Source of the DNA: Candidatus Enterousia sp. | GTDB lineage: Bacteria; Pseudomonadota; Alphaproteobacteria; Rs-D84 | DNA length: 64,000 bases | Direction: 5' to 3' | Assembly (NCBI GenBank): GCA_045606425.1 | Contig: JAZURV010000004.1 | Coordinates: 46,353-110,352 of the forward strand | Shown here: in pieces, positions 1 to 31,958 of the stretch | How the letters are laid out: each line of letters starts with the position of its first letter | Position numbering within the stretch: position 1 is the stretch's first letter | The notes under the pieces: generated by a model | The model's database searches: none | Told to the model about the DNA's origin: nothing | What the model saw: only the letters and a program-made list of their open reading frames with translations | Position numbers and translations under genes: made by a program

Positions 1-493
1 ATCTGCCACCACATAATACTGGATACAAAATACCATTTTTTGTCGCATCGGACATCAATTTACGACAAAGATCCACTGCTTTTCCTTGCAGATCTGAAAA
101 TTCATTACTTGTCGCACTTACACCTGGTATAGACGTATATTGTTCCTTGTTTACTTTAATTATATTATTAGCAAAAGTTTCACATAACTCAGGACATTTT
201 TTACCGCTTTTACCACGACCGTTTCTTAAAAAATCAGATTTATTACATTGTGTTTTACATACACTTATTGCATCAATCACAGAAAACGTTTTGCGTTCCA
301 ATAAATCTCTTAGAATTCTATTTCTTGTAGTCACAACCTCATGGTACGTATTAATAGAACTAGAAAAACCAGCATTGTTTAAAGCTGTTTCAATAATTTT
401 TGAATTCCATTGCAATTGTGTAGTTTCGGTTATAAACCCTGCAAACACTGGCACCGCCATAAAACAGGATAAAATTAAAAATATTTTTTTCAT
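1..493 (-). CDS. secreted hypothetical protein, truncated by the window edge (cargo gene of A-family module 1)
   Basis: Own minus-strand translation from the ATG at 493-491 gives MKKIFLILSCFMAVPVFAGF..., a Sec-type signal peptide. The frame stays open to position 1. The start overlaps the stop of the upstream gene (TAATG). It is absent from the ORF track because it runs off the window. Confidence 0.55.
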   Translation of the reverse strand, partial: MKKIFLILSCFMAVPVFAGFITETTQLQWNSKIIETALNNAGFSSSINTYHEVVTTRNRILRDLLERKTFSVIDAISVCKTQCNKSDFLRNGRGKSGKKCPELCETFANNIIKVNKEQYTSIPGVSATSNEFSDLQGKAVDLCRKLMSDATKNGILYPVLCGGR

Positions 494-1476
494 TATCTAA
501 GTGCCTCCTCACATGCTTCTGCGACTTTGACAACCTTCTTGATTGCAGATATTTGTGTCGCATTAAATATTGTTGCTGTTGCAGATGTCGCAGTTGATGC
601 ACCCGCCATAACATTTGCGGTTGCATTTAAATTTTTTTCTTTCTGTTCATCACCTTTACGTGTTTTATCTGTATTAGCAAGGCTACTTGTTATTGTTCCA
701 ACAACACCTGTTCCGATACCTATACCAGAAGCAATTGTAGCCCCATTTGCACGTTTATTTATTGGTTTTATATCAATATATTCATAATCACGACATGCAC
801 TTATGATTTCATCTGCCTTTGCTAAATCATAATCCGTTGCGGTATTTTCTACCTTTGCAGCCAGTTTAACATTTGATAAATTTTTTATTGCAACAATACA
901 TCTATTTATCTTGTTTTCTAAATCATCATCGACTTTATTAGAGGCTGCTATCGCTGTTCCTGCAATATTAGTGACAGTTGATGTCGCCAAAGTCCCTGTT
1001 CTGATATTACCAAGTGTTTTTGATTTTTGTTCTAATTCATTGATTTTTTTAACATCTGCAGAAATAACCGAATCGGCACTGTATGCCGCACTGTGTATAG
1101 CAGAATAAAATTCCTGTTCATTTGCAATTTCTAACTGTTGAACAGGCACATTAGATTTCTCTGCAATCAATTTCACAACTTTTGCTTCCAAATCCTGTTG
1201 TTCTTTATCTACACTTGCCTTCGCAATACCTGTCCCCAGTGCAACACCACCGGCAACGGTACCAACGGCTGTTACTGCGGTATTTATTCCCGCCATTTTT
1301 TTCAAATCAGCCATACTATCACTTATACCAGCACATGCTGTTCTGGCATTTTGAACGGCAAAATTTAAATCATTGGATTCTGCATAAGCACAAAAGTTAA
1401 ATGTTAATAAAAACAGGCACGGCAAAACTACCCGTGTGTGTGTGTGTGTGTGTGTGTAGGTTTCTGCGGTTTTCAC
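493..1476 (-). CDS. A-family secreted/membrane-associated protein, paralog 1 (Gly/Ala/Thr-rich hydrophobic segments, 4 conserved Cys)
   Basis: Paralogous to 7561..8556 and 31955..32905 (shared AGINTAVTAVGTVAGG, GN.RTG.LA, VGTITSS.AN.DK, NATQI.AIKKV.KV motifs). Start re-assigned to the in-frame GTG at 1476, preceded by RBS AAGGAAG. The ORF-track start at 1542 lies upstream of a sigma70 promoter. Confidence 0.7.
   Translation of the reverse strand: MKTAETYTHTHTHTRVVLPCLFLLTFNFCAYAESNDLNFAVQNARTACAGISDSMADLKKMAGINTAVTAVGTVAGGVALGTGIAKASVDKEQQDLEAKVVKLIAEKSNVPVQQLEIANEQEFYSAIHSAAYSADSVISADVKKINELEQKSKTLGNIRTGTLATSTVTNIAGTAIAASNKVDDDLENKINRCIVAIKNLSNVKLAAKVENTATDYDLAKADEIISACRDYEYIDIKPINKRANGATIASGIGIGTGVVGTITSSLANTDKTRKGDEQKEKNLNATANVMAGASTATSATATIFNATQISAIKKVVKVAEACEEALR
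1434..1457. repeat. (GT)12 dinucleotide simple-sequence repeat inside the signal-peptide coding region
   Basis: Counted directly: 24 nt of uninterrupted GT. It encodes (Thr-His)n between the start codon and the hydrophobic core of the signal peptide. Confidence 0.95.
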
Positions 1477-1503
1477 GGCTTTTCTTCCTTTCTTTACCGT
1501 TCC

Positions 1504-1532
1504 ATTATACCATAATTTAAAAATATTTGCAA
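1504..1532 (-). promoter_or_regulatory. sigma70-type promoter for A-family paralog 1
   Basis: Minus strand reads TTGCAA, a 17-nt spacer, then TATAAT with extended -10 TG (TGGTATAAT). It lies about 25 nt upstream of the RBS and GTG. Confidence 0.5.
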
Positions 1533-1564
1533 AAAAAAACACCGGCGATTACCGGTGTTTTTTC
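1531..1564 (-). terminator. intrinsic terminator downstream of dnaA (bidirectional shape)
   Basis: A-run, hairpin CACCGG-cgatt-ACCGGTG, then T-run. Confidence 0.6.
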
Positions 1565-1595
1565 TCCCTTCTTTTGTCCTTGCGAACAAAACTGT

Positions 1596-2873
1596 TTATT
1601 TGCAGATTTTTACCATGTCTTCAATTTCTGCATTTAATATCAAATCTGTGGCCTTTTGTTTTTCAATTTGGGTCAACGCATAAACAACTGTTGCATGGTC
1701 ACGTCCACCACAAATATTTCCAATTTCTGACAAAGATAAATTTGTAGATGCCTTTAACGCAGCCATCATAACCTGACGCGCACGAACCAAACGGCGGGCG
1801 CGCGAATTTCCGCAAATTTCATCAAACGAAACCGCCATCTTTTCGCACATCTTTTTAACCATCGCCAACGGTGTTTTTGTTTTATTCAATACATCAGACA
1901 ATAATTTTGACGCAACTTCCATATTGACGCGTTCACCCATCAATTCGCTGTATGTTTTTATTTTGTTGATAACACCATTTACCATATGACCGTCTGCTGC
2001 AATTTGTTTTGAAATTTCATCTGCAACAACAGAATCAACCCCGGCGCGCAACAACATATTGCGACGAACAAACGCATTTGGCCCCATGACATCAACCGCC
2101 AAACCAGACGCGAACAAAGATTGAATGCGTCTGTCAAAACCGTTCAACGCATTTGGCGCACAATTCGCAGTTAAAACAATACTTTTACCGGCAGTATGTA
2201 AATCCATCAACAACTGTAGAAATTCTTCACTGGTTGCGCGTTTCCCAGCCAGCGCACAAATATCGTCCATCACAAACATATCGCAATTGCGACAAAAATC
2301 TTTGAATGCGAATATAGTTCTGTCACGCAACGCACGCGCAAAATCTGCAACAAATTGCCCACCAGACATTCTGACCACGTTTTTATTTGTGGAATTACAA
2401 ATGCAATCCAACAACATAGTTTTTCCACAACCACTGGCGCCATATATAAACAATTGCGAAAAAGATGCGTCCGCCCCTGCAACCTTTTTACAGGCCGCAA
2501 CTGCAAACATATTTTCATCACATGTAATAAATTTATCGAAACCGTTTTTATTTTGTATTGTTTTTGTCGCAGGTTTATATTCGCAAACAACATTATCATT
2601 CGCGGTTGATGCAACATTATTATTTGCGCGCACAGAAATATTCAAATCCAAACAAAAATCCGCCGCTATATTTGCCAGGGTGTTTCCGTATTCCCTTTTG
2701 ACATAGTCGGCGGTGAATTGGTTTTGCGCAATCAGGTTCAAACAGTTTTCACATATATCTGCCTGCAACGGTGCAATCCATGCTGTAAATCCGGCAGAAT
2801 CTATTTTGGCCGCAAACGCCCCCATAACCGATTCCACATTTACATTTTTGTTCATCGCTACTGCTTGTTGCAT
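1596..2873 (-). CDS. dnaA: chromosomal replication initiator DnaA (short form, 425 aa)
   Basis: Walker A GASGCGKT, Walker B FVMDD, and C-terminal DNA-binding segment GGRDHATVVYA. Confidence 0.95.
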   Translation of the reverse strand: MQQAVAMNKNVNVESVMGAFAAKIDSAGFTAWIAPLQADICENCLNLIAQNQFTADYVKREYGNTLANIAADFCLDLNISVRANNNVASTANDNVVCEYKPATKTIQNKNGFDKFITCDENMFAVAACKKVAGADASFSQLFIYGASGCGKTMLLDCICNSTNKNVVRMSGGQFVADFARALRDRTIFAFKDFCRNCDMFVMDDICALAGKRATSEEFLQLLMDLHTAGKSIVLTANCAPNALNGFDRRIQSLFASGLAVDVMGPNAFVRRNMLLRAGVDSVVADEISKQIAADGHMVNGVINKIKTYSELMGERVNMEVASKLLSDVLNKTKTPLAMVKKMCEKMAVSFDEICGNSRARRLVRARQVMMAALKASTNLSLSEIGNICGGRDHATVVYALTQIEKQKATDLILNAEIEDMVKICK

Positions 2874-3151
2874 ACTGTTTGCTCCTTTCCTTTGTTAAAA
2901 AGAGTTGGCAATCATATTTATGGTTATAAAACCACCCCGCACATAAACGCCTTATATGCCACCATTCTCTTTTTTCTCTCGCTTTGTTGATTGACTTTCA
3001 GCAATCGTTTTTGATGTTAAACAATTTATAAAATTTATTTCTGTTTGCAATCAAATGTTAAACAATTTTTCAACATTTCTGTTTTGACAACGATTCGTTT
3101 TTTTATTGGTTTTTCGCACTTTGTATATACACTGTATAGACATTTTTTTAC

Positions 3152-4189
3152 TCAGTTTAAAACATATCCACCGTCTTGTTTTCTTATCAAACCTTGTAAT
3201 TCCAGAACTACTAATTCAGACTTGATTTCCGAAACACTTTTTTTGACAAGATTTGCCAATACAGATTCTGACACAGGAATCATTCCTATTTTATCCAAAA
3301 GGTCATTTTCATTATTTTTATTTTTTTTACTTTTTTCTTCTGTTATATCACCAAAGAAATCTTTTACAGATGTGCACATTGTTGCCACGCCTTTCTTTAT
3401 CAGCGAATTCGGCCCTGCACTGCGCGCGTCACTGGGGTGTCCAGGCACAGCAAACAGCCTTTTTCCATAATCTATTGCGAATCGGGCGGTGGTCATACTG
3501 CCAGATTTTTCATCTGCTTCGCCAACAATTAAAACATCAGACAACGCCGCAACCCAATGATTTCTTTGTACAAAATTCGATGCTGTTGGCATCATACCAA
3601 CGGGCATTTCACTTATCACCACACCGCGTTCCAGTATTTCATAATACAGCGATTCGTTTTCCAATGGCCATATATAATCGACACCGCCCGCCAACACTGC
3701 GATTGTCTGGGCGTTTCCGTTCGCACGCAACGCCCCACTGTGTGCCGCAGTATCACACCCCATCGCCATACCAGACGCAACTGCGAACCCATGTTCTGCA
3801 AACGCACACGCAATATCAGAAACGAAATTCATACCCGCCACCGTCGAATGCCGTGTCCCAACAACAGAAACTGATTTTTTTCCCAATGTTGATATGTTCC
3901 CACGTGCAGTTATAACAATCGGGTGATTTTTTACATTTAACAAACCAACCGGATATCGCGAATCGGTATCGGCTATGTATTCAATGCCCAAATCATAGGC
4001 GGTGTCCATTTCGCGTCTGACAGAATCTATAAAATCCTGTGATGGTGCCAAATGCGCCAATATATTTTCATCGTTCCCATATTTATCGACCAGTTCTTTA
4101 TACTTTGCCGGCCCTATTTTTGGGGTTCTTAAAATCAAAAGTTTATTTAACATATCCATCATAATAAAAAAGATTGTAGATGAAACCAC
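3152..4189 (-). CDS. dprA: DNA-processing protein DprA/Smf
   Basis: SGMA.GCDTAAH and VVGTRH motifs with a C-terminal winged-helix-like tail. The true start is probably one of the internal Met codons near 4153-4159. Confidence 0.9.
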   Translation of the reverse strand: MVSSTIFFIMMDMLNKLLILRTPKIGPAKYKELVDKYGNDENILAHLAPSQDFIDSVRREMDTAYDLGIEYIADTDSRYPVGLLNVKNHPIVITARGNISTLGKKSVSVVGTRHSTVAGMNFVSDIACAFAEHGFAVASGMAMGCDTAAHSGALRANGNAQTIAVLAGGVDYIWPLENESLYYEILERGVVISEMPVGMMPTASNFVQRNHWVAALSDVLIVGEADEKSGSMTTARFAIDYGKRLFAVPGHPSDARSAGPNSLIKKGVATMCTSVKDFFGDITEEKSKKNKNNENDLLDKIGMIPVSESVLANLVKKSVSEIKSELVVLELQGLIRKQDGGYVLN

Positions 4190-4222
4190 AATCTTTTTTA
4201 AGTAAAAAGTTGTTATATTTTA

Positions 4223-5026
4223 TTATTCACCAATACTGGACAAAAGCGATTTATAATCTTTACAATCTTGACCAGATGTTGTCCCGGCATCACATGCATC
4301 TCTCATCGTTTTCAAAGCATCTACGATTTGGTTATATCGCGAATCGCCTTTTTCTTTATATGTCAGCAACACAGACCGATAAAGTTCCTGACCTTCCAGA
4401 TTCTTTTGTCCCTGAACTTTGCCACCAATCAGATCATTTCCAAACCACTCCATCGCGCCAACACCCAATCCTGCGCCACCGACTGTACTGGCCACTATAC
4501 CACCAATACGGGCACCTTTTTTGGCGTCCAAAATGCGTTTTTCCATTTCATTTTCATCGACCCATGACCCACATTCGATTGCTTCGCCCCATGTAAAATA
4601 TTTCGCAGGCACATCAGATACTGCGACACGCGATTCGTTATCAGATTTCAGTTCTACACGAACGAAACAAACATTGTTTTCTGGGTTTTTCGTATCTTCG
4701 ACCATGTTGGCATAATTGGAAGTATCACTGTAACGTGACGCCCAAACAAAGGTATTACCAATACCAATATTATTGTTTATGCATGCATCACGTTCGGCGG
4801 TCCGCATATCTATTTTTTCTTCGACAGTTGTCAATTCTTCGTCTTTGGTTTTTTCTTCGACCTTTATCGTGCCATTTGCAACCCCAACAGCATTCAACTG
4901 GTTTACGGACGCAGTATAACGTGGCGCAGACATAATCTTGTTCGACATTGCCGGACGCGCACTCTGTGCAGCAAACGCATCAACGATAAACAAAGAAAAT
5001 ATTGCCAAAGCAAAAATATGTTTCAT
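4223..5026 (-). CDS. secreted hypothetical protein with C-terminal glycine-zipper segment
   Basis: Internal ATG at 5026 gives signal peptide MKHIFALAIFSLFIVDAFA. C-terminal segment reads GARIGGIVASTVGGAGLGVGA. Confidence 0.55.
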   Translation of the reverse strand: MKHIFALAIFSLFIVDAFAAQSARPAMSNKIMSAPRYTASVNQLNAVGVANGTIKVEEKTKDEELTTVEEKIDMRTAERDACINNNIGIGNTFVWASRYSDTSNYANMVEDTKNPENNVCFVRVELKSDNESRVAVSDVPAKYFTWGEAIECGSWVDENEMEKRILDAKKGARIGGIVASTVGGAGLGVGAMEWFGNDLIGGKVQGQKNLEGQELYRSVLLTYKEKGDSRYNQIVDALKTMRDACDAGTTSGQDCKDYKSLLSSIGE

Positions 5027-5093
5027 AATAAATCCCTCTTTATGCCCCACATTATACCACAAAATCGACTAAAATACAAACAGAATCTCTGTA

Positions 5094-5702
5094 TTATTTT
5101 TTCCATTTCCATTTGACGGTCGATTCTTCGCCACGACACAGCCGTTTGATATTTTCGCGATGCCGCATCAAACACAATATCGCAATGGCCACAAATGCCC
5201 AACCTGTTCCGATACTGACCAAAAAACCAAAAAACGGCATTAAACAGAACACCACAATCGCCCCGGCCGACGAATACCCCGTTCCCAGCGCAACAATCAA
5301 CCATTCGATTCCTTCAATTACAAACAAAATCGGATTTATGGCCAACAAAACGCCGAACAGGGACGAAATGCCCTTGCCCCCACGAAATTTCAACCAAATC
5401 GGGAAACAATGCCCAACAATCGCGATAAAACCGCACCACGCACCAAAAGAAATCCCCCCGACATAACGACCGATAAACACAGCGATTATCGCCTTTGTCA
5501 TATCCAGAATCCATGTCAATCCTGCCAATCGCAATCCCCCGACACGCATAACATTTGTGGCGCCGATATTGCCAGAGCCAACCTTGCGAATATCGCCTTT
5601 GTTAAAAACCTTGGCCACCAGTAAACCGAACGGAATCGACCCCAACAGATAAGATATTACTATGGCAAAAGAAATCATTATTATTGAAAAAATGTGCAAC
5701 AT
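5094..5702 (-). CDS. plsY: glycerol-3-phosphate acyltransferase PlsY
   Basis: GSIPFG and GSGNIGATNV motifs; polytopic membrane protein. Confidence 0.95.
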   Translation of the reverse strand: MLHIFSIIMISFAIVISYLLGSIPFGLLVAKVFNKGDIRKVGSGNIGATNVMRVGGLRLAGLTWILDMTKAIIAVFIGRYVGGISFGAWCGFIAIVGHCFPIWLKFRGGKGISSLFGVLLAINPILFVIEGIEWLIVALGTGYSSAGAIVVFCLMPFFGFLVSIGTGWAFVAIAILCLMRHRENIKRLCRGEESTVKWKWKK

Positions 5703-5776
5703 TGTTATTTTCCCTTGATTTTGTGTTTGTTTTCTTTAAAATAGCATAAAACCATATAAAATAAAAGGAAAATAAA

Positions 5777-6037
5777 GTGGCAAACCATAAATCATGTAAA
5801 AAAAGAATTCTGGTAACAGAAAAAAAGAATGCAATCAACACTGCCCGTCGCAGTGCTGTTAAAACAGAAACCAAAAAGGCATTGAAAGCAATTGAATCTG
5901 GCGATAAAGCCGCCGCAGTTGCTGCAACACGTGCCGCAGAAAGCAAAATCATGAAGGCAGCAGGCAAAACAATGCCAAAGAAAACTGCATCGCGCAAGGT
6001 TTCTCGTCTGGCAAAGAAAGTTGCCAAAATTGCATAA
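5777..6037 (+). CDS. rpsT: 30S ribosomal protein S20
   Basis: MANHKSCKKR... basic 86-aa protein. Confidence 0.95.
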   Translation: MANHKSCKKRILVTEKKNAINTARRSAVKTETKKALKAIESGDKAAAVAATRAAESKIMKAAGKTMPKKTASRKVSRLAKKVAKIA

Positions 6038-6076
6038 TTAGGTTTTCTAAAAAAACAAACCGCCCAATCGGGCGGT
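6019..6076. repeat. 58-nt direct repeat, copy 1 (last codons of rpsT plus its terminator)
   Basis: Identical 58-nt string is found again at 8650..8707. Confidence 0.9.
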
Positions 6077-6080
6077 TTTG
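6059..6080 (+). terminator. rpsT intrinsic terminator
   Basis: Hairpin ACCGCCC-aatc-GGGCGGT followed by TTTT. Confidence 0.7.
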
Positions 6081-6136
6081 ATATGCGTTTTTAGATTTTT
6101 CCAATTATTTTTTATTGTATTTCATTTGTCCACTTT

Positions 6137-7564
6137 TTAAATATAATCACAATTTGTTTCTTCTGTATCTTTATTTATCTCTTCTTTACATTTGCATGGC
6201 ATACACTGACTTTCTTCACAATCTGTACAAAGTTCAGAAACAGGGCCATAATCAACTATTACCTTTAACGACGAAAAATCTGTTTGAACCTCAAACCATT
6301 TTATAAAATTATCTATGTTTGATGTTAAATCTATGCATCCCGCAGAACCCGCATAACTTCCCCCATGGATATACATATCTGGTTTACGTCCAAACAAATC
6401 TGTATTTGTGTCTGGGCGCAAAGGAACACGAAACTTTCCCCACGCCCCTCCTTCTTTATCTGCAAGAAGAGAATTATTATTGAAATTACCAACTGTTATA
6501 TTATCCATATATTGAATTTCGTTTTGATAGATATAATATACACCACTTGGTGTTGGGCCAATATGTTCACATGCTTGATATTCAGGTAATTGGCACACAG
6601 TTGGCCTTGAATCCCTTGGTGATTTTCCACGACCAGACACAGCAGGCCAAGATTTTATAACATTACCTTTATAATATACATCGAATTTCTTACCGTCAAA
6701 TTTCGTATAATAATCATTTGACAGTGCTGGCTTATGTTCTTTATCGTAAGAAACGACACAAACGCCACCTTTTTTTACAGAACCATAACCCCATTTTGAT
6801 AACTTTTCATTTAACAAACCACAATCGTTATGTTGGCATTCAAAATCAAAACCATAACCATCATAAATATATTTTCTGACACTTCGATTATCTAAAACGC
6901 CTGCTATTGGTTTAGCAGCCACCGCTTCTGATTTCCCACCATAAATTAAACAAAGCCCACGACCAAAATCTCTTTGTGTATATTGATTTGCATTAGCATT
7001 AGATTCTTTTGCGTCATCAAACTTAAATTCGTAATAAATTGGTTTCAATTTCGATGTACATTTTATGTAATCGTCCTTAACCCCTTCGCGAATATCAGAC
7101 GAACAAACTATTTCATCATTATATTTTTCTCTGGCATACTCTTGTGCCAAATTTTTTGCCTGAGCAAATTGAACTTCTATATCATAAAACACAAATTCTA
7201 TGCAACGCTCATTGTCTTTACCGATTTTGCCCTTGTCTTTACCACAAACTTCATAATATGTATAATTATCATCAGCGGCGCTTACTAATGCGCGTCTGAA
7301 TTCTGCCCGTTTGGCTTTGTCTTTTGTTCTGTCCCATCCTGCGGCATCACATATCTTAGCTATCGATTCCGCACTAACCGTATTTTTTGGATTGTTATTG
7401 TTTAATTCCATATTATACACACTTATCACCTTTTCCCGAACGGTCTTGTCTGGAAAATATTGCCGTAATACACTTAATGCTACATTAGCTGGAATATGTA
7501 TATTCGCATACGAATTTATCGTCATCAAACACATCGAAATTGCACAGAATATTTTCTTTATCAT
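6137..7564 (-). CDS. secreted protein with C-terminal Tlde1/DUF2778-like L,D-transpeptidase-fold toxin domain
   Basis: Signal peptide MIKKIFCAISMCLMTINSYA from the ATG at 7564. C-terminal region: FDGKKF..WPAVSGRG..GPTPSGVYYI..FRVPLRP..GRKPDMYIHGGSYAGSAGCIDL (the H...S.GC catalytic motif of the YkuD-like fold). ATGA overlap with the upstream A-family gene. Confidence 0.7.
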   Translation of the reverse strand: MIKKIFCAISMCLMTINSYANIHIPANVALSVLRQYFPDKTVREKVISVYNMELNNNNPKNTVSAESIAKICDAAGWDRTKDKAKRAEFRRALVSAADDNYTYYEVCGKDKGKIGKDNERCIEFVFYDIEVQFAQAKNLAQEYAREKYNDEIVCSSDIREGVKDDYIKCTSKLKPIYYEFKFDDAKESNANANQYTQRDFGRGLCLIYGGKSEAVAAKPIAGVLDNRSVRKYIYDGYGFDFECQHNDCGLLNEKLSKWGYGSVKKGGVCVVSYDKEHKPALSNDYYTKFDGKKFDVYYKGNVIKSWPAVSGRGKSPRDSRPTVCQLPEYQACEHIGPTPSGVYYIYQNEIQYMDNITVGNFNNNSLLADKEGGAWGKFRVPLRPDTNTDLFGRKPDMYIHGGSYAGSAGCIDLTSNIDNFIKWFEVQTDFSSLKVIVDYGPVSELCTDCEESQCMPCKCKEEINKDTEETNCDYI

Positions 7565-8556
7565 TTCAATACCCCCGTACAACCTGATGATACTTTGGCA
7601 ACTTTCTTTATCGCTGCAATTTGCGTTGCATTAAACACTGTCGCCGCCGCAGACGCTGTCGTTGTGGCGCCCGCCATAACATTTGACGCAATATTTAAAT
7701 TTTTTTCTTTCTTTTTTCCTGAATCCGTATTGTCGTTTCTGACTTTATCACTGTTTGCGATGCTACTTGTTATCGTTCCAACACCACCCAATCCTGCACC
7801 AACAGATGACGATATCATCGCACCACGTCCACGTTTGTTTATTGGGCTGATATCTACATATTCATATTCACGACATGCTTTATATATTTCTTGCGCTTCA
7901 CTGACATCTGTGCCAGCCAATTTGGCGGATAATATCGCATTATTTAAATCTTTGGTCGCAGATATACATGCATCAACCTGACCCTGAATATCGTCTTTGT
8001 TGATTGTGCGACTGGCGATAATCGCACCCGCAACATTAGTCGCTGTATTTCCCGCCAATAATCCTGTGCGCCAATTACCCTGTCTTTTCGATTTCTTATC
8101 CAACTCTTTTATTTCTTCTGTTATATCCTTTGCATGCGCAGTTTCATACTCATCGCATTCTTTCAAAAATGCGACTTTGTCTTCTGCTGTTGCTTCTGGT
8201 CCTTCGTATTCATTAGACAACCTTTCCAATTCTTGTTCCAATTCTTCAATTTTGCTGTCTGTGTTTGCTTTTGCAATCCCTGTTGCTGTTGCGCCAATAC
8301 CCAATCCGGTTCCAACCGCTGTCACCGCAGTATTTATTCCCGCCAAAACCTTTATATCATGTAAATTTTCATCTATATCAACACATGCGCGATATGTGTT
8401 TTGTAATGCAGTGTTTAAATCTAAAACTTCGGCAAAAGATGTGAACGGAATTAAAACCGTTACGAAAAACACCGTTGTTGTCCAATAAAAAACAACCACG
8501 CATCTATACGTACAAAGTCCCAAAGTTTTTACAATTTTTATCCCCTTCTTCACCAC
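7561..8556 (-). CDS. A-family secreted/membrane-associated protein, paralog 2
   Basis: Paralog of 493..1476 and 31955..32905. Exact start uncertain (GTG at 8556 or downstream). Confidence 0.7.
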   Translation of the reverse strand: MVKKGIKIVKTLGLCTYRCVVVFYWTTTVFFVTVLIPFTSFAEVLDLNTALQNTYRACVDIDENLHDIKVLAGINTAVTAVGTGLGIGATATGIAKANTDSKIEELEQELERLSNEYEGPEATAEDKVAFLKECDEYETAHAKDITEEIKELDKKSKRQGNWRTGLLAGNTATNVAGAIIASRTINKDDIQGQVDACISATKDLNNAILSAKLAGTDVSEAQEIYKACREYEYVDISPINKRGRGAMISSSVGAGLGGVGTITSSIANSDKVRNDNTDSGKKKEKNLNIASNVMAGATTTASAAATVFNATQIAAIKKVAKVSSGCTGVLK

Positions 8557-8622
8557 GATATTGTATCACATTTATGGGAATTATACAATAAAAACACAGA
8601 TGAATAATTATTCCAAATCATA

Positions 8623-8654
8623 AAATTAAATAGAATTGTTTAGATGCGAAGTTG
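8623..8654. repeat. 32-nt direct repeat, copy 1
   Basis: aaattaaatagaattgtttagatgcgaagttg is repeated at 10268..10299. Its last 5 nt overlap the start of the 58-nt rpsT-end repeat copy. Confidence 0.9.
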
Positions 8655-8707
8655 CCAAAATTGCATAATTAGGTTTTCTAAAAAAACAAACCGCCCAATC
8701 GGGCGGT
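8650..8707. repeat. 58-nt direct repeat, copy 2 (rpsT 3' end plus terminator, no rpsT body)
   Basis: Identical to 6019..6076. The hairpin here serves as terminator for 8713..9195. Confidence 0.9.
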
Positions 8708-8712
8708 GTTTT

Positions 8713-9195
8713 TTAGTCACCAGACGGATTATTAAAAGTCCAACCGACAAATATTTTCCCGTTTATGTGTTGCGCTTTCCGTGGTGTGCGGATATCACCA
8801 CCGTATGTCACACTGCCCGCGTCGTTTGCGTCAATATCAGATTGGTCTGCATGGTCCCAATTTATCGTTATGGTATTCGGTTCATAAACAGCAACCAAAC
8901 CCATCGGAAAATTAGCGGCACACGAATTATTCATGGTGGCGTCCGAAAAAGAATCGAAAATTACCCCCTGAAAATTATCTGGATTAAAATCAAATGTTCC
9001 GCCGGGGCACGTTCCGCCGGTCGGACACGCGACACAAGTGACAGCATTCGCAGGTAAAAATTGTCCACTTGCGCAAGTATAAGAATTTGGTTCATACACC
9101 GCATAATAATCAGGAACATCTGTATCACACATCATATCTGCAAACACAGATTGCGTTATAATTACCGCCGATAAAAACACATAAATTTTTTTCAT
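8713..9195 (-). CDS. Cys-rich secreted protein with conserved C-terminal B-repeat (Listeria/Bacteroides repeat-like) domain
   Basis: Signal peptide MKKIYVFLSAVIITQSVFA, CxxC-rich middle, and C-terminus ITINW..DIDANDAGSVTYGGDIRTPRKA.H..GK.FVGWTFN shared with three other genes. Confidence 0.75.
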   Translation of the reverse strand: MKKIYVFLSAVIITQSVFADMMCDTDVPDYYAVYEPNSYTCASGQFLPANAVTCVACPTGGTCPGGTFDFNPDNFQGVIFDSFSDATMNNSCAANFPMGLVAVYEPNTITINWDHADQSDIDANDAGSVTYGGDIRTPRKAQHINGKIFVGWTFNNPSGD

Positions 9196-9977
9196 TGTAA
9201 ATCGCCAATCTCTGGTCCCGCAACAAATGTACCTGTACCGGCGTTCGTGAAGAACTGACCAGATACAGTGTCATACATACCAACGACATTGTCGAACTGA
9301 CGGCGCGCCGGAATACCATTAAATACCAATGTACCAGACGAATTTCTTATCCAAACACTATACATCTGTGCAGAAACTTTTTGAATTGCGGAAACATTAC
9401 TATTATTCGCAAACAAATATAATTTCAGTCGATTATCACTAATACCACTTTGTTGAGTAAAGGTTTTTGTAACACCATCTATATTTAGCGTAACATTGTT
9501 ATTATTATCAACTATTGTATGGATTGTGTGTTTGACGTTATTAGCAACCTCCCCCAGATTTGAATAACTGCTAGATGTTGAATTATAAAAGCTTAATACG
9601 CCAGAGCCATAATAATAATAAGTTTGACGCAAATTATAACTAGCACTAGTATCTTGACACCCCATTAATGACACATCATTTGCACCGTTTGTTTTTTTAA
9701 AATTTATAAACACTTCGCTTGCCAGTTTATCCAATATGACGCCCGTATCGATATACTGTGTACCTGTACTTTCAATGTATTCCAGTTTGGTGTAGCCTGA
9801 TTCCCATCTGACAAAATGATAGCCTGTTTTTGCTGGGGCGGTTGGCGGAGTTATATTGTCACCAGATTGACAACTGGTTGTTGATACAACCTGTCCGTTC
9901 GCATACCAATTTATCGTGTGTGCAATTGCGCCGGCACATATAAACATCGCAAATAAAAACATCAAGATTTTTTTCAT
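9192..9977 (-). CDS. secreted protein: N-terminal B-repeat domain plus conserved ~190-aa C-terminal domain (LEYIESTGTQYIDTG ... GMYDTVSGQFFTNAGTGTF)
   Basis: Paralog of 44619..45410. Has the GYHFVRW B-repeat signature. ATGA overlap with the downstream gene. Confidence 0.7.
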   Translation of the reverse strand: MKKILMFLFAMFICAGAIAHTINWYANGQVVSTTSCQSGDNITPPTAPAKTGYHFVRWESGYTKLEYIESTGTQYIDTGVILDKLASEVFINFKKTNGANDVSLMGCQDTSASYNLRQTYYYYGSGVLSFYNSTSSSYSNLGEVANNVKHTIHTIVDNNNNVTLNIDGVTKTFTQQSGISDNRLKLYLFANNSNVSAIQKVSAQMYSVWIRNSSGTLVFNGIPARRQFDNVVGMYDTVSGQFFTNAGTGTFVAGPEIGDLQ

Positions 9978-10369: not shown

Positions 10370-11968
10370 TTAGTTCAGTGGGGCGCCCCAATGCTGTTGA
10401 ATACTGCGTTCTGCGTCCATCGGGCTGACCAAAACTTGCGGTGTCAAGATAACAACCAAAACTTCACGCGATGCGGCGGTTTCGCGCGAACCAGACAATG
10501 CCATAAAGTCTGCGTCGCCAAGGCCATATCTGGTATCATCATTCTTTTGTTTTTCAAACCCAGACACAACTAACATTTGACCAGATTCCATGATGACTTC
10601 CTGCATGAATGAACGTTCTTCAACCTCTGGCAATTGCAGTGTGACTGCACCAATTGTTTGTGTTGACATTTTCAACAATTCGCGCACAGACATTTTGAAC
10701 AACAGCAATATTTTCCCGTTTTCCAAAACATTTGGCAATAATTGCATTGAAAAACCTGTTTCCAAATCGTCTTGGTCAACCGTACTGGATTCAACAGTTG
10801 TAAATGTACGCGATTCGAATCGTTTGATGTAACCTGTTGATTTTGTGTTTGTCACAGGTGCGACACGATTATTACGCGTCGTGACGCCAACATTTGTGAC
10901 CAACGATACCTTGCCCTGCTTTGCCAATGCCTCTATCAGCGCATTGGACCCCGCCAGACGCGACATAGACCCGTTACGAATTTGGTCTTCGGTATATGTG
11001 CCGGCAATCCCTGTTGCCGCTTCGGCTACCTTGTTAGACAACACTGCGATATTCATTGACGAAGCCTCTGTCGATGCCAAATTGTTCTTTGGGTTTGCAA
11101 CAATGTTCAACCCAGACGCAGAATTTATCGCTGCCGCCAGATTCAACCCGAACGCCGATTCGTTTGACAAAGACACCTGTAATACCTTCACATCTATCGT
11201 CACCAATTGTGACAATCTTTTGTTTTGTTTTGTGATATATTCGCCAACACGATTCAGTACAGATGGCGACGCAGTCACAGTAATTGTCCCCAAACTGCGT
11301 GACACTGTAAATTGAGCATTCTTAGAATTATTTATAATAGAATTTATGGTTGCTTCGACTTCGTCCCATTCTTTCAGTGTAGATTCCAACGAAACCTGGT
11401 TTCCTGAATCAGTTTGCACAGACGACTGATACGACACATCTGTCCCCAGCGCATATAATGTATAAGTACGCGTTTCTGTTTCATAGAAAACAATTGAATC
11501 TTTGTCATAATACCACAACAAATCCAAATCTGTCGCAATTTGTGACAGCAATCCCGACAATTTACCAGTATATGCAACATCAACTGTCTTTCTTAATTTT
11601 TCAGCATCGACCTGGCTGTCGATTTTCACAGGGATACCAGTTATTGAATTTATATCGTTCGCCAACACCTGCAAAGTGACTGGTTCGTTTAACAAAATAG
11701 TCACCCCCGTATCGGTTTCGAATTTTGATGGCAAATTATTTTTGTGTTCCAACAAAGTGGATTTGTTTCCCAACCAAACACCTTCGGACATGGAAACAGT
11801 GTCACTGCTGGTGACCTTGGCCGGTGGATTCTTTGCCATTTCGAATGCTTCGTATGCATTGACAAAGTTTTTATCAACCGTTGCAGACACCTTGGCTGAT
11901 TCTTTCAATGTGCACCCAGTCAGTGCAACAATCAAGCCTATTAAACAGATATTAAAACGAATTTTCAT
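10370..11968 (-). CDS. secretin-family outer-membrane lipoprotein, PilN (type IVb pilus / R64)-like
   Basis: Lipobox LIVALTGC. C-terminal secretin domain: LLPNVLENGKILL..LPEVEERSFMQEVIMESGQMLVVSGF..REVLVVILTPQVL. Confidence 0.7.
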   Translation of the reverse strand: MKIRFNICLIGLIVALTGCTLKESAKVSATVDKNFVNAYEAFEMAKNPPAKVTSSDTVSMSEGVWLGNKSTLLEHKNNLPSKFETDTGVTILLNEPVTLQVLANDINSITGIPVKIDSQVDAEKLRKTVDVAYTGKLSGLLSQIATDLDLLWYYDKDSIVFYETETRTYTLYALGTDVSYQSSVQTDSGNQVSLESTLKEWDEVEATINSIINNSKNAQFTVSRSLGTITVTASPSVLNRVGEYITKQNKRLSQLVTIDVKVLQVSLSNESAFGLNLAAAINSASGLNIVANPKNNLASTEASSMNIAVLSNKVAEAATGIAGTYTEDQIRNGSMSRLAGSNALIEALAKQGKVSLVTNVGVTTRNNRVAPVTNTKSTGYIKRFESRTFTTVESSTVDQDDLETGFSMQLLPNVLENGKILLLFKMSVRELLKMSTQTIGAVTLQLPEVEERSFMQEVIMESGQMLVVSGFEKQKNDDTRYGLGDADFMALSGSRETAASREVLVVILTPQVLVSPMDAERSIQQHWGAPLN

Positions 11969-11998
11969 ATTTGTTCCCTCGTCCTTAAAAAAATTAAA

Positions 11999-12886
11999 TT
12001 ATTCTTCTGTGGTTGAAACAACCAAAACACGATTTCCCTTGTAAAACTTTGCATACGGGACAGGTGTTGCGCGTCCAAAATTGCGCACCAATGCCGACGC
12101 CACATCAACAAAGCGTCCCTTGAATACCGCGCTGGCCTCTATTGGATATTCACGCGAAGTTGTCCACACTAAATCCCAACCTTCTTTGTCACACCAAGAC
12201 TGCAAAACCTGACGCAAAGTTTGACCGTTTGCAACAACCCACGAACGAACCTGGTCTTGAACCTTTGCCCCGGCTTCTTCATCAGTGTATTCGTTTACTG
12301 CAACCTCTGTATCCGCGGCATCAGATTTATTGCATGACGCTTCGGCACTGAACCCAGCCTTTTGCGCGAACATGGCATAATCATCTGCGCCCTGATTACA
12401 ATTTTTACGACCACTGCGCGACATAGCCAGAACACTGCCACCATCATCTTCCATCATTTCACGGCGCATCAGTGGCATTTCCGCGTTATTTGCACATTCA
12501 TAATCAAAACCAGCAGGAATCTGAATGCCATTAGAAATGTTTGGACCACCACTCCAACCCGTGCCATTTGTGATAATATTATTTTCAATACGCAACCCAT
12601 TACCAGTTTTTGCAACAACCATCGCATCGTTTTTCTTGCAGCCTAATTCGCCGCACGCGATTTCAACATCAGCGTCAGTCCCCGCCAATGGCCACACAGG
12701 AACATCCTGTTGTACAACTGTGTTTTCTTCGTATTCGTATTCTGGGGATTCGATTTCTTCTGTATATTCTTCTTCGCCAGAATCATAAAAAACCTCAGAA
12801 GTTGTAATCTGTGGAATTCTTTGTGCAGCCCCAGCAACGCCAACCAGGCCTGCAACCGCCATAAACACGCATAATTTGTGGAACAT
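11999..12886 (-). CDS. TcpQ/PilL-like domain protein (secretin-associated)
   Basis: Signal peptide. C-terminal region W.VANGQTLRQVLQSWCDKEGWDLVW...FKGRFVDVASALVRNF...AKFYKGNRVLVV resembles the TcpQ domain. Confidence 0.6.
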   Translation of the reverse strand: MFHKLCVFMAVAGLVGVAGAAQRIPQITTSEVFYDSGEEEYTEEIESPEYEYEENTVVQQDVPVWPLAGTDADVEIACGELGCKKNDAMVVAKTGNGLRIENNIITNGTGWSGGPNISNGIQIPAGFDYECANNAEMPLMRREMMEDDGGSVLAMSRSGRKNCNQGADDYAMFAQKAGFSAEASCNKSDAADTEVAVNEYTDEEAGAKVQDQVRSWVVANGQTLRQVLQSWCDKEGWDLVWTTSREYPIEASAVFKGRFVDVASALVRNFGRATPVPYAKFYKGNRVLVVSTTEE

Positions 12887-28891: not shown

Positions 28892-29118
28892 GGTTTTTCT
28901 CCTTGGTTATATATAGATGATTATAACACAGGCATTATAGCATCGCAACAATATATATTTTTCTCACTTTTATGGTATTTGTAAGACATGATAAAAAAAT
29001 AACCAATCAAGATTTTATAACTATTAACGCAAAAGGGCTTTTTGTTGGTGGAAAAGCCACAAAACAATACCACGGCAAAACAATTGAAAAATTTGACGAA
29101 GTAAAGACTTTTAATTTT

Positions 29119-29139
29119 TGGTGGACGCACAGGGACTCG
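29119..29139. repeat. 21-nt duplicate of the tRNA-Lys 3' end
   Basis: tggtggacgcacagggactcg is identical to 29284..29304. Confidence 0.9.
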
Positions 29140-29283
29140 CTCGCACGGCACTTTGTGCCGGCTACGCGTCAATCGTAACGATTTCACTACGCTTTGCTTG
29201 TAAAATCTACTGCTTGTCGAACCAGGGTTCTCGTCCATACTGTGCTACAAAATAAAAACACCACCTGACGGTGGTTTTTATTT

Positions 29284-29359
29284 TGGTGGACGCACAGGGA
29301 CTCGAACCCTGGACCCACTGATTAAGAGTCAGTTGCTCTACCAACTGAGCTATGCATCC
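29284..29359 (-). tRNA. tRNA-Lys (CTT), CCA encoded
   Basis: Hand-folded: acceptor GGATGCA/TGCGTCC, anticodon loop CTCTTAA, T-arm CAGGG-TTCGAGT-CCCTG. Confidence 0.9.
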
Positions 29360-30074: not shown

Positions 30075-30110
30075 AAAAACAGGCACCTTTCCGGTGCCTG
30101 TTGTTTTTTT
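30075..30110. terminator. bidirectional intrinsic terminator
   Basis: AGGCACC-tttcc-GGTGCCT flanked by A-run and T-run, between convergent genes. Confidence 0.7.
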
Positions 30111-31059
30111 ATTTTAATAAAAGAATACTTTTAGTCTCTTTATCAAACCACACATCCTGTGCACCACCATGATTTGCCCCACCAATAATAGATTTGTTTC
30201 CAGTAAAAACCCCCATTATATTACCTTCATCATCAAATATACCACCACCAGAATTTCCTTTCCATACTTGACAATTTTTATCTTTACCATTACTAGAATA
30301 TTCACAATATGACACTTTTAACACATCACCATTTTCAAAAAATTCGTTATAATAAGAATTTTCATTATTACTTAAATACTGCAAAAAATAACTAACAAGC
30401 GGAAAATCTACCCAAACACCATTTTCATAAAATCCCAGCATCTTTTCTTTTCCTGTTGCTTCAACACCCACTTTTTCTTTTAAATATTTAATATACTTTT
30501 CTTTAAACGACTGTATTTCTTTGTCGCTCATGATTTTAAGCGCACCATAGCCAATCACTCTGGCGTCATAATCAAGCGTGAATGGACCAACTCCGAATTT
30601 GTGCTTATTACTAATATTTACCGAATTTAATTCTTTTTCTGAGATTGTATAAAAGGTCCAATCACCAGAATAATTTTGAAAACCACGTTTTATAGTAACA
30701 CCATTCACTACCTGCTTTTCCTCATAAAAATCCCCTACTTCTTTTTTATTTGCTTCAAATATTTTTCCATCTTGTGATTCTGATTTTATTTTATCCACAG
30801 GAGCATTTAAATCATCGATAACACAATGCTTAGCTGTATATAAATATAACTTACCGTCCTTTTTAACAATTGTTCCTGTGCAACGTTTATTTTTATTGTA
30901 TACCATAACTACTGCATTATACGGTTTTTGTTTCTTTTGCTGATCGGTTACATAACAACGTTTATCCACAGTATATTCAGACGGATTTGTACACGCATCC
31001 TTTGCCAAAGATGGTGACAGGAACAAAAAGAATAATAAAGACACAAATATTTTTTTCAT
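30109..31059 (-). CDS. secreted trypsin-like serine protease (S1B/V8-like), copy 2
   Basis: Signal peptide. PYNAVVMV..TGTIV..LYTAKHC (His), DWTFY (Asp), GNSGGGIFD (Ser). ATGA overlap with the upstream gene. Confidence 0.75.
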   Translation of the reverse strand: MKKIFVSLLFFLFLSPSLAKDACTNPSEYTVDKRCYVTDQQKKQKPYNAVVMVYNKNKRCTGTIVKKDGKLYLYTAKHCVIDDLNAPVDKIKSESQDGKIFEANKKEVGDFYEEKQVVNGVTIKRGFQNYSGDWTFYTISEKELNSVNISNKHKFGVGPFTLDYDARVIGYGALKIMSDKEIQSFKEKYIKYLKEKVGVEATGKEKMLGFYENGVWVDFPLVSYFLQYLSNNENSYYNEFFENGDVLKVSYCEYSSNGKDKNCQVWKGNSGGGIFDDEGNIMGVFTGNKSIIGGANHGGAQDVWFDKETKSILLLK

Positions 31060-31958
31060 CTTTTTTTATTTTTATACCCTTTCACGCCTTCTATCCATCC
31101 ACTTAACGATTCATAATAATATTCCGGTTTTATTCCATTTGAAGATGCATCTCTTTCTTGCCCTATAGCAGGTCTTGATACAGAACATAAAATTCCAACT
31201 ATCTCGTTGCTATCAATATCTATCAGTGCCGAACCAGAAAGCCCTGGGGCGCTAGGACAACTTGTATGAATCTCGGAATCTATACTTGTAATTCTACATC
31301 CAGTACGCACTTTCATATTATGACTATCACCAAATATGCACATAAAGCTATCAGTAGGACAATCTACACAATTTGCTTTTTTGTCCACAGAACATGCATG
31401 ATTTCTTTTCAAACTAATTTCTATATCTGCCATCGCTTCATAAGCATTACTTCCTGTGATTCTACCATTTTTTCGCAACCAATCAGTATATAACTGCTTT
31501 ATTATTTTCAATTCATTATTAGATAATGGTTTTAAACTATCGTAACCAACAACCATTAAATTACTTGATTGCCTTGTATTGGCAGCAACTTTTAACACTT
31601 TCCCAGAAAAAGCATCTGGATTAACTATCCATGCAAAATCATGTTCATCTTTATTATCTTGCAAATATTGTCCAACCATACCAGAGTGTTTTTTCCCATC
31701 CGAGGTATAATAATCTATCATTTTTTCTGATCCGGTATTATCAACTACATGTCTACAAGTTAAAATTATATCTTCAGATACAAAAGTTCCTGTACCTGGG
31801 CTTCCGTTATCTTCAATCCTGACCACAGTATTATATGGGAACAAAGATTTCTCTTCTTGTGTAACATATCTACGCGAATCTCCACCATAACCAACCATAT
31901 CACCCAAACAAAAACAAGGAAAAAACATAATAAAAAAAGATATATATTTTTTTATCAT
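31056..31958 (-). CDS. secreted trypsin-like serine protease (S1B/V8-like), copy 1
   Basis: Signal peptide. PYNTVVRI..GTGTFV..ILTCRHV (His), DFAWI (Asp), GLSGSALID (Ser). ATGA overlap with the upstream A-family gene. Confidence 0.75.
   Translation of the reverse strand: MIKKYISFFIMFFPCFCLGDMVGYGGDSRRYVTQEEKSLFPYNTVVRIEDNGSPGTGTFVSEDIILTCRHVVDNTGSEKMIDYYTSDGKKHSGMVGQYLQDNKDEHDFAWIVNPDAFSGKVLKVAANTRQSSNLMVVGYDSLKPLSNNELKIIKQLYTDWLRKNGRITGSNAYEAMADIEISLKRNHACSVDKKANCVDCPTDSFMCIFGDSHNMKVRTGCRITSIDSEIHTSCPSAPGLSGSALIDIDSNEIVGILCSVSRPAIGQERDASSNGIKPEYYYESLSGWIEGVKGYKNKKR

Follow-up and report, generated by a model that had tools for sequence, protein, structure and literature searches.

Organization of the A-family units

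A 64-kb stretch of Candidatus Enterousia sp. contig JAZURV010000004.1 (positions 46,353 to 110,352 of the forward strand; the whole of this stretch is referred to below as the window) was analyzed for a recurrent two-gene unit, in which a gene encoding a protein of approximately 320 aa, here termed A, is followed by a gene encoding a different exported protein, its partner or cargo. Enterousia belongs to the order Rs-D84, has genomes mostly smaller than 1 Mb and is predicted to lead a partner-dependent lifestyle; the genus and its Rs-D84 relatives are common, uncultured inhabitants of ruminant, horse and chicken guts (PMC12306168). The window has a G+C content of 39.5% and carries housekeeping genes of a small alphaproteobacterium (dnaA, dprA, plsY, rpsT, sufB, gatA/B, recJ, PBP2, thrS and tatC). 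In an initial annotation three loci were described as beginning with paralogs of A, and tblastn recovered the same three minus-strand genes, A1, A2 and A3, at 33–45% identity with E values of 1e-29 to 1e-65; the same search found no fourth copy within the window. The features of the three units are as follows, by position in the window.

1..495, minus strand: cargo1, N-terminal 164 aa only, with a signal peptide and a class 1 N-domain
493..1476, minus strand: A1, A-family paralog, 45% identical to A2
6018..6079, unstranded: copy 1 of a 62-nt direct repeat, comprising the rpsT 3' end and a terminator hairpin (6057..6078); right border of the A2+cargo2 unit
6137..7564, minus strand: cargo2, 475 aa, with a Sec signal, a Cys-rich N-terminal region and a C-terminal YkuD/Tlde1-superfamily domain; AlphaFold2 model with a predicted local distance difference test score (pLDDT) of 81.4
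6257..6682, minus strand: catalytic domain of cargo2, predicted L,D-transpeptidase fold (Pfam YkuD)
6326..6376, minus strand: catalytic motif MYIHGGSYAGSAGCIDL, with the His codon at 6365..6367 and the Cys codon at 6335..6337
6938..7564, minus strand: cargo2 signal peptide plus class 0 N-domain, common to partners of A2-type proteins elsewhere, including those of 857–1952 aa
7561..7564, minus strand: ATGA overlap of the A2 stop codon and the cargo2 start codon (translational coupling)
7561..8556, minus strand: A2, A-family protein of 331 aa from a GTG start, with signal peptide ...LIPFTSFA/EV, four semi-hydrophobic Gly/Ala/Thr-rich helices and four invariant Cys
8649..8710, unstranded: copy 2 of the 62-nt repeat, 61/62 identical to copy 1; left border of the A2+cargo2 unit
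30109..31059, minus strand: cargo3b, second Sec-signal trypsin-like serine protease (Trypsin_2, 34.4 bits)
31056..31958, minus strand: cargo3a, Sec-signal trypsin-like serine protease overlapping both neighbouring genes (Trypsin_2, 46.2 bits)
31955..32905, minus strand: A3, A-family paralog, approximately 34% identical to A1 and A2

Only 164 aa of cargo1 are seen because its gene runs off the window. The junction between A2 and cargo2 reads ...TTGAAATGATAAAG, so that the cargo2 ATG (7564..7562) overlaps the A2 TGA (7563..7561), and the ends of A3, cargo3a and cargo3b (31955 and 31958; 31056 and 31059) likewise form 4-nt overlaps. The generality of this arrangement was assessed in 80 loci from species-representative genomes (labelled L with a number, such as L020) together with the window, giving 86 A genes. 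Every one of these was followed by an abutting same-strand open reading frame (ORF) encoding a signal peptide, six of which run off their contigs. The junction was an ATGA overlap in 59 cases, a TAATG overlap in 11 and a gap of 1–2 nt in 13, with 83 of the 86 lying within -4 to +2 nt. When all neighbours of the 80 loci were clustered, no third recurrent gene (barrel, ABC transporter or immunity protein) emerged, as no family was present in more than ten loci. The unit comprises two genes and in some cases, such as that of A3, additional cargos in tandem.

No immunity gene follows cargo2, the downstream sequence consisting of the terminator at 6057..6078 and then the convergent rpsT gene. At other loci a co-directional downstream gene was also absent after seven of eight cargos with a Tlde1-type domain, the exception being L020, where a same-strand ORF of 237 aa overlaps the cargo. 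No type VI secretion system (T6SS) family was detected among the 27 window proteins scanned. The translational coupling, the conserved partner with swappable Sec-exported cargo, and a signal-bearing cargo2 with neither T6SS nor downstream immunity genes had all been put forward in the initial annotation, and each is upheld by these data.

A conserved exported protein with modular, variable partners

A proteins are approximately 320 aa and 32 kDa in size, and the N-termini of A1–A3 are signal-peptide-like. In alignments of A1–A3 and of 80 family members four Cys are invariant, and the invariant positions concentrate in these residues and in four Gly/Ala/Thr/Asn-rich segments, joined by charged linkers that are variable. 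This matches the architecture first ascribed to the family. Hydrophobicity of the four segments, expressed as the Kyte–Doolittle 19-residue mean (KD19), reaches only 1.0–1.5 and so lies below 1.6, the customary threshold for stable inner-membrane insertion. Such sub-threshold values would permit Sec export followed by conditional membrane insertion. An AlphaFold2 model built from the 80-sequence alignment is composed entirely of helices, two of them of approximately 65 residues, with a mean pLDDT of 68.6 and a predicted template modelling (TM) score of 0.55.

The suggestion that A falls outside known families, those of immunity proteins included, was borne out by every resource searched (Pfam, NCBIfam, PADLOC, and sequences and structures of the PDB). 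A1–A3 gave no meaningful match in Pfam, NCBIfam or PADLOC, an A-family profile matched nothing among all PDB sequences, and the 80 members scanned with Pfam at E ≤ 1 returned low-complexity or compositional noise only. One such hit, P5CR_dimer in 28 of the 80 members, was rejected as noise arising from Ala/Gly/Thr-rich helices. Among the weak structural neighbours listed by Foldseek were pore-forming toxins of the ClyA family, namely AhlB, SmhB, MakA and Hbl (E 0.17–1, TM-score 0.2–0.3); with a moderately confident A model this similarity was too weak to use, a ClyA-type fold was not assigned and the matches were not counted as evidence. Assignment of A as a specific immunity protein was also rejected, because unrelated catalytic domains are found paired with a single A type and there is no immunity-family match.

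A profile search of 5.8 billion proteins returned at least 1,979 relatives of A. Among the best 120, every named protein was annotated as hypothetical and the named organisms were Candidatus Enterousia or unclassified gut Alphaproteobacteria. HMMER, run exhaustively over 1.84 billion cluster representatives, found 457 clusters (50% identity) at E ≤ 1e-3 and 398 at E ≤ 1e-10; among the matches listed almost all were stand-alone proteins of 290–360 aa, and the best 150 of the 457 clusters were all clear family members. Five A-family proteins were longer (P0281, P0299, P0310, P0318 and P0320; 580–710 aa), matched the profile in two to four stretches and look like A modules that have been duplicated in tandem or fused. 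The titles of the 80 loci refer nearly all to Candidatus Enterousia, Alphaproteobacteria or uncultured-proteobacterium metagenome-assembled genomes (MAGs), with rumen, horse, sheep and chicken gut as stated sources and a Muribaculaceae label on two contigs of a single bin. Judged from these searches, the A family is bounded and seen only in Enterousia-like gut alphaproteobacterial MAGs, and no published description of it was found in the literature searched. The window encodes another exported protein with a small-residue hydrophobic character, a signal-peptide protein of 279 aa (4223..5062, minus strand) with no Pfam match and a C-terminal glycine-zipper-like segment, IGGIVASTVGGAGLGVGAMEWFG, that is kept at 62–96% identity in syntenic loci.

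Partner lengths lie between 207 and 1,952 aa, and BLAST groups the partners into 15 clusters. When Pfam families were counted at E ≤ 1e-3, the 50 partners of up to 700 aa contained Tlde1_dom in eight cases, a trypsin-like domain in three, YkuD in one (cargo2) and a glucosaminidase in one, and the 30 partners above 700 aa gave essentially no Pfam match. The expectation that the downstream gene would always encode a secreted enzyme therefore held in part only: a Sec-signal protein was present in all 86 cases, and a recognizable enzyme domain was found in 12 of the 80 partners, so that the stronger statement was not borne out because few partners have recognizable domains. In 28 of the 30 large partners (857–1,952 aa) a hydrophobic stretch with a KD19 of 1.6–2.6 lies just past the conserved N-terminal region; the two without it, L012 and L013, form a separate N-terminal class. 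In the 20 large partners whose sequence was read, this stretch is a Gly/Ala/Val-rich helical hairpin of 35–50 aa, flanked in many on both sides by Cys-containing stretches. The short partners, cargo2 included, have no such segment. In large partners of A2-type genes (L023, L027, L049, L052, L054, L056, L063, L069, L070 and others) the C-terminal halves are highly variable and repetitive. A C-terminal J-domain-like HPD/HED motif occurs in four of the 30 large partners below the Pfam cut-off (21.8 and 19.5 bits versus 27.8), and an HExxH motif in one; the J-domain motif is convincing by eye and, being below the cut-off, is taken as a hint only.

BLASTP matched residues 1–215 of cargo2 to the N-termini of partners of 857–1,952 aa, and residues 285–450 (approximately) to the C-termini of partners of 349–456 aa that have different N-termini. 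On these alignments the partners are modular, with an N-domain specific to the A subtype joined to a variable payload. Of 42 A2-type pairings, 39 are with N-domain class 0, and three of four A3-type pairings are with trypsin-like partners, whilst pairing in the A1-type group is looser and involves many N-terminal classes. Over all locus pairs, mean cargo identity was 0.59 where the A proteins were at least 80% identical and 0.31, unrelated cargos included, where they were 70–80% identical; by this measure partners are seen to evolve much faster than A.

The signal-peptide-like N-terminus of cargo2 precedes a domain that had been identified from its motif as Tlde1-like, an identification that now holds at the level of the superfamily. 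Cargo2 passes the gathering cut-off of YkuD (PF03734, 23.4 bits) with 36.7 bits for the whole protein and 39.5 for the domain only, over profile positions 14–145 of 146, but fails that of Tlde1_dom (PF10908, 30.1 bits) with 19.6 and 22.0 bits, respectively, an outcome named in the initial annotation as counting against its proposal; both trypsin-like proteases of the A3 unit exceed their own cut-off of 27.6 bits. The cargo2 model matched the L,D-transpeptidases YkuD (1y7m), LdtMt2 and Ldtfm and the entry 4a1i in the PDB with Foldseek E values of 1.7e-5 to 1e-3. Its N-domain is confidently modelled, yet all significant PDB matches fall on the L,D-transpeptidase domain. On the side of Tlde1, of eight cargo domains at other loci that are related to it, five pass PF10908 at 31.2–34.7 bits, and the best PDB sequence match of a nine-sequence cargo-domain profile was Tlde1a (7uo8/7uma; E 0.026) over WG.yRI.L...YIH...GC. 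The catalytic His and Cys are invariant in that nine-sequence alignment and align with YIHD...SHGC of Tlde1a. As the cargo2 motif reads HGGSYAGSAGC, nine residues separate its His and Cys and SAGC stands in place of SHGC, whilst relatives of cargo2 read H-x12-SGGC; the published Tlde1 motif is H-X14-17-(S/T)HGC-h (PMC9638812). Full-length orthologs of cargo2 carry precomputed PF03734 and/or PF10908 matches, and its distant relatives include proteins combining an extracellular contractile injection system (eCIS)-core domain with Tlde1. We conclude from these comparisons that cargo2 is a YkuD/Tlde1-superfamily member lying nearer to the toxin-type branch by its relatives, not demonstrably Tlde1 itself, and its payload is predicted from sequence and model to be a peptidoglycan enzyme of L,D-transpeptidase fold.

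Turnover of units and cargos between strains

The two copies of the 62-nt repeat bracket the A2+cargo2 unit exactly, and the terminator within them is bidirectional. Locus L081 is 97% identical to the window over 476..6079 and 98% identical over 8649..9036, has one repeat copy (L081 7242..7304) and has no A2+cargo2. The same empty junction is present in L083, L084 and L085, these four strains (97–99% nucleotide identity) all missing window positions 6080–8648. A2+cargo2 is thus an insertion/deletion polymorphism, since strains of 97–99% identity hold one repeat copy and no module, and the unit is accessory. It contains no transposase, integrase or other mobility gene. An origin of the repeats as the target-site duplication of a mobile element was rejected on that ground and because the repeat consists of the rpsT 3' end and terminator; from its sequence the repeat is read as homology for insertion by a single crossover, or for deletion. 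The same chromosomal site, between the secretin gene described below and rpsT, carries other A types and cargos in L003, L034 and L071.

Cargo replacement is seen at the other two units. The A1 ortholog of L081 is 96% identical to A1, but its cargo is only 49% identical to cargo1 over 120 aa, and nucleotide homology between L081 and the window stops approximately 17 nt into the cargo1 ORF (at about window position 476). Cargo1 is thus swapped at the A/cargo junction beside a 96%-identical A1. L086 has an A3 of 98% identity, lacks cargo3a and retains a single protease with 52% identity to cargo3b. The sole protease gene following A3 in L086 is 98.7% identical to cargo3b over its first 150 nt and diverged in the remainder, a pattern that suggests recombination at gene starts. 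The 5' ends of A3, cargo3a and cargo3b (32873..32905, 31922..31954 and 31027..31059) share a similar stretch of 33 nt at 70–76% identity. After the swapped cargo adjoining A1 in L081 there is an ORF of 135–143 aa without a signal peptide (L081 549..980, minus strand), which could be an immunity-like gene or unrelated; the corresponding position on the contig studied here falls before the first nucleotide of the window.

Other features of the window lie near these sites. Directly upstream of the A2 module site is a lone pair of genes (10370..12886, minus strand) encoding a lipoprotein-type secretin (PF00263) and a TcpQ-domain protein (PF10671), with no other pilus or type II secretion system genes near the pair. 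An A gene and its cargo immediately follow the secretin in three related species (L003, L034 and L071). The secretin was rejected as a general feature of the module, as the adjacency occurs in the window and these three close relatives only (four of 81 loci). Between the secretin and the A2 module are genes for two signal-peptide proteins of 160 and 261 aa (8713..9977, minus strand) with Listeria-Bacteroides/InlB B-repeat motifs; both are missing from the syntenic loci L003, L034 and L071 and may be another variable cassette of the same hot spot. Near the A3 operon, a perfect direct repeat of 24 nt (29116..29139 and 29281..29304, 165 nt apart) matches the end of a tRNA-Lys gene (29284..29359, minus strand) and resembles the remnant of an old integration event at that gene. 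The window also encodes a VirD4-like coupling protein, a VirD4/TraG-type type IV secretion component (51382..53691, plus strand; PF02534, 172 bits) situated amid housekeeping genes, which hints at a type IV secretion system in this reduced genome.

Possible functions and comparison with known systems

The reading we favour, with somewhat less than an even chance of being correct, is that of a Sec-dependent polymorphic-effector module with A as a dedicated membrane-active partner. A and its partner would both reach the periplasm through Sec, where A would bind the N-terminal domain of the partner and oligomerize via its glycine-zipper-like helices into a membrane channel, the favoured site being the outer membrane of the producer. 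The channel would carry the payload out, and its targets would be neighbouring or partner cells, at their wall or surface. The logic would be that of a one-component export partner with a polymorphic effector, as in Neisseria MafA/MafB or TpsB/TpsA, using unrelated proteins and without immunity genes. The recognized payloads, which are YkuD/Tlde1 domains, trypsin-like proteases and one glucosaminidase, suit action outside the cytoplasm and speak for this reading, as do the constant two-gene arrangement, the pairing of A subtype with N-domain class, the polymorphic payloads and their turnover between strains, the sub-threshold hydrophobicity of the A helices, the MafA/MafB precedent and the partner dependence predicted for Enterousia; toxicity, export and the role of A are what we infer from the pattern.

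A number of points weigh against it. Membrane location, oligomerization and partner binding of A are all properties that we infer, the A model is confident only at the Cys-bearing base near the four Cys, and the fold has no Foldseek match to the PDB at E ≤ 0.001. A subtype and cargo class could correspond because operons were inherited vertically and not through physical recognition, and translational coupling of the first gene to the second is also compatible with A as a 1:1 chaperone or inhibitor. Large partners may stay anchored in the membrane by their hydrophobic stretch rather than be released, and the lone upstream secretin and TcpQ pair could give export without A. Absence of immunity genes is unusual for interbacterial toxins, and 68 of the 80 partners have no recognizable enzyme domain; any toxin reading is weakened chiefly by this lack of immunity genes and by the large number of partners without annotation.

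Some of the same evidence can be arranged as a binary toxin, in which A would be a helical pore-former or translocator released together with its partner and inserting in the membrane of the target, so that the enzyme reaches the target periplasm or cytoplasm-type payloads cross. Anthrax PA translocates LF and EF through their common N-domain in this manner, and the partners described here combine a common N-terminal adaptor with variable payloads. The semi-hydrophobic, glycine-zipper-like helices of A are typical of conditionally inserting toxins, and the ClyA-family proteins named above are its sole biologically themed weak structural neighbours. The central hydrophobic stretch of 28 of the 30 large partners (a hairpin in the 20 read) would also fit, as would the J-domain-like or HExxH motifs of some of them, which would make sense only inside another cell, and the lack of a hairpin in short partners with periplasm-acting enzymes. 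We nevertheless regard this as unlikely, since the Foldseek matches are non-significant, the J-domain matches lie under the Pfam cut-off, a separate route over the outer membrane of the producer would still be required, and A is far more conserved than its partners, which agrees no less well with self-assembly in the producer. A could instead be a general periplasmic holdase, inhibitor or safety partner that acts 1:1 on the partner N-domain to keep enzymes inactive or folding-competent, with any export left to vesicles, the secretin or other machinery. Such a role would account for an A gene that is always upstream and coupled, so that no cargo is made without A. It would agree too with the lack of a separate immunity gene, with conserved A and variable partners, and with the secretin and TcpQ pair adjoining the module in this lineage. 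This explanation is quite unlikely, however, as one A would have to neutralize unrelated catalytic domains, which is feasible only via the N-domain and blocks no active site; conservation in A is highest in hydrophobic helices of small residues and not in a binding surface, and adjacency to the secretin is confined to four closely related loci of 81.

The unit might not be a weapon at all. A and its partners would then constitute a variable envelope, surface or adhesion complex serving antigenic or host-range diversification, with cargo2 as an accessory, self-directed L,D-transpeptidase that remodels or tethers the wall of the producer itself. In proteobacteria YkuD enzymes tether envelope proteins to peptidoglycan, and in agreement with such a role cargo2 scores best with classical YkuD, its model matches housekeeping L,D-transpeptidases, no immunity gene is present, many partners have no toxin-like domain and the large ones may be anchored in the membrane. 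Against this, strains of 97% identity do without A2+cargo2, which is therefore dispensable; the nearest relatives of the cargo2 domain score above the Tlde1_dom cut-off, more remote ones are found in eCIS toxin architectures, and trypsin-like protease and glucosaminidase payloads suit attack or digestion better than structure. Strain-level presence or absence and the toxin-type relatives are thus the chief weaknesses of a housekeeping role, which we consider very unlikely. That cargo2 is a classical T6SS-delivered Tlde1 effector, with T6SS and immunity genes elsewhere in the genome, is hardly credible: its motif resembles that of Tlde1 and its relatives match PF10908, but it carries a Sec signal peptide, is ATGA-coupled to a partner that is itself Sec-exported, scores below the PF10908 cut-off, and has neither an adjacent immunity gene nor any T6SS gene among the window ORFs scanned, and the word 'secretion' is absent from the published description of these sub-1-Mb genomes.

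The favoured module can be extended to a bolder proposal, which we hold to be doubtful, that A is a new single-component alpha-helical (glycine-zipper) translocation device of the reduced-genome, partner-dependent Rs-D84 gut alphaproteobacteria. It would export or deliver immunity-free effectors of fast turnover, including peptidoglycan editors, proteases and giant hairpin proteins with cytoplasm-type domains, as a central tool of a symbiotic, parasitic or predatory lifestyle. Within 64 kb of a tiny genome the module occurs at least three times and partners turn over between strains of 94–97% identity, and the module is therefore taken to be central to the dealings of the cell with its surroundings. 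It bears on the question of how Rs-D84 bacteria gain nutrients or deal with partners (PMC12306168). Should A serve in export or delivery, it would represent a new and very compact way to move folded, disulfide-rich proteins over the Gram-negative envelope and a second case, beyond MafA/MafB, of Sec-dependent polymorphic effectors with a small dedicated partner; Tlde1-like peptidoglycan editors would, if this is true, also be used outside T6SS. Even as a chaperone, a family of 457 unannotated clusters at 50% identity merits a name and a model. The A/partner pattern is strong, lineage-defining and testable, with its function proposed on the grounds given above.

Among known enzymes, cargo2 resembles the Tlde1 T6SS effectors (DUF2778, PF10908; PMC9638812) in its YkuD-superfamily fold and aligned catalytic His and Cys, but differs from them in its Tlde1_dom score of 19.6–22 bits, in a His–Cys spacing of 9 and not 14–17, and in having SAGC instead of SHGC. 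It further differs by its Sec signal, an extra Cys-rich N-terminal region of approximately 280 aa and the lack of a Tldi1-type immunity gene. With the classical YkuD L,D-transpeptidases (B. subtilis YkuD, LdtMt2 and E. coli LdtA–F) it has in common that it passes PF03734, matches the fold and is Sec-exported; unlike them it has no LysM or peptidoglycan-binding domain, shares its N-domain with polymorphic giant proteins and is encoded by a strain-variable gene coupled to A. As for A itself, an all-helical protein of the size range of ClyA-family and binary alpha-helical toxins (AhlB, SmhB, MakA and Hbl/Nhe; 300–360 aa, approximately), with buried hydrophobic segments and operon-encoded components, recalls that group, and the common N-terminal adaptor of its payloads recalls AB toxins such as anthrax LF and EF. 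Fold similarity to the ClyA family is, however, non-significant (E ≥ 0.17, TM-score 0.2–0.3) with no sequence match, and pore formation by A is putative.

The organization of the unit is closer to that of dedicated two-component export systems. MafA is a 34-kDa outer-membrane oligomer encoded beside the Sec-dependent MafB, with cognate specificity mediated by the MafB N-domain (Arenas et al. 2020, PMC7738311). As in the Neisseria system, a partner of approximately 32–34 kDa is encoded immediately upstream of its substrate with Sec signals on both, the substrate combines a conserved N-terminal recognition domain with a variable C-terminal payload, and several paralogous pairs per genome occur as accessory, island-like units with cognate specificity, seen here as the tracking of N-domain class by A subtype. 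No homology between the two systems was detected, A1–A3 and the 80 members having no consistent Pfam or NCBIfam match and the 80 partners no MafB-type N-domain (DUF1020). Whereas MafA is a presumed lipoprotein of mixed alpha/beta structure, A is all-helical in the model and has no lipobox, and the units described here lack MafI-like immunity genes and orphan toxin cassettes and have payloads that include peptidoglycan enzymes and proteases. TpsB/TpsA and CdiB/CdiA share with these units a partner gene that comes first and a Sec-dependent substrate that is recognized through its N-terminal domain and polymorphic at its C-terminus. In contrast to TpsB and CdiB, A is predicted to be all-helical and has no Omp85 or POTRA match, and in contrast to TpsA and CdiA the partners are without two-partner secretion (TPS) or haemagglutinin-repeat domains and without an immunity gene. 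The logic is a variant of that of Sec-dependent polymorphic-effector systems with a dedicated partner, and the components are new.

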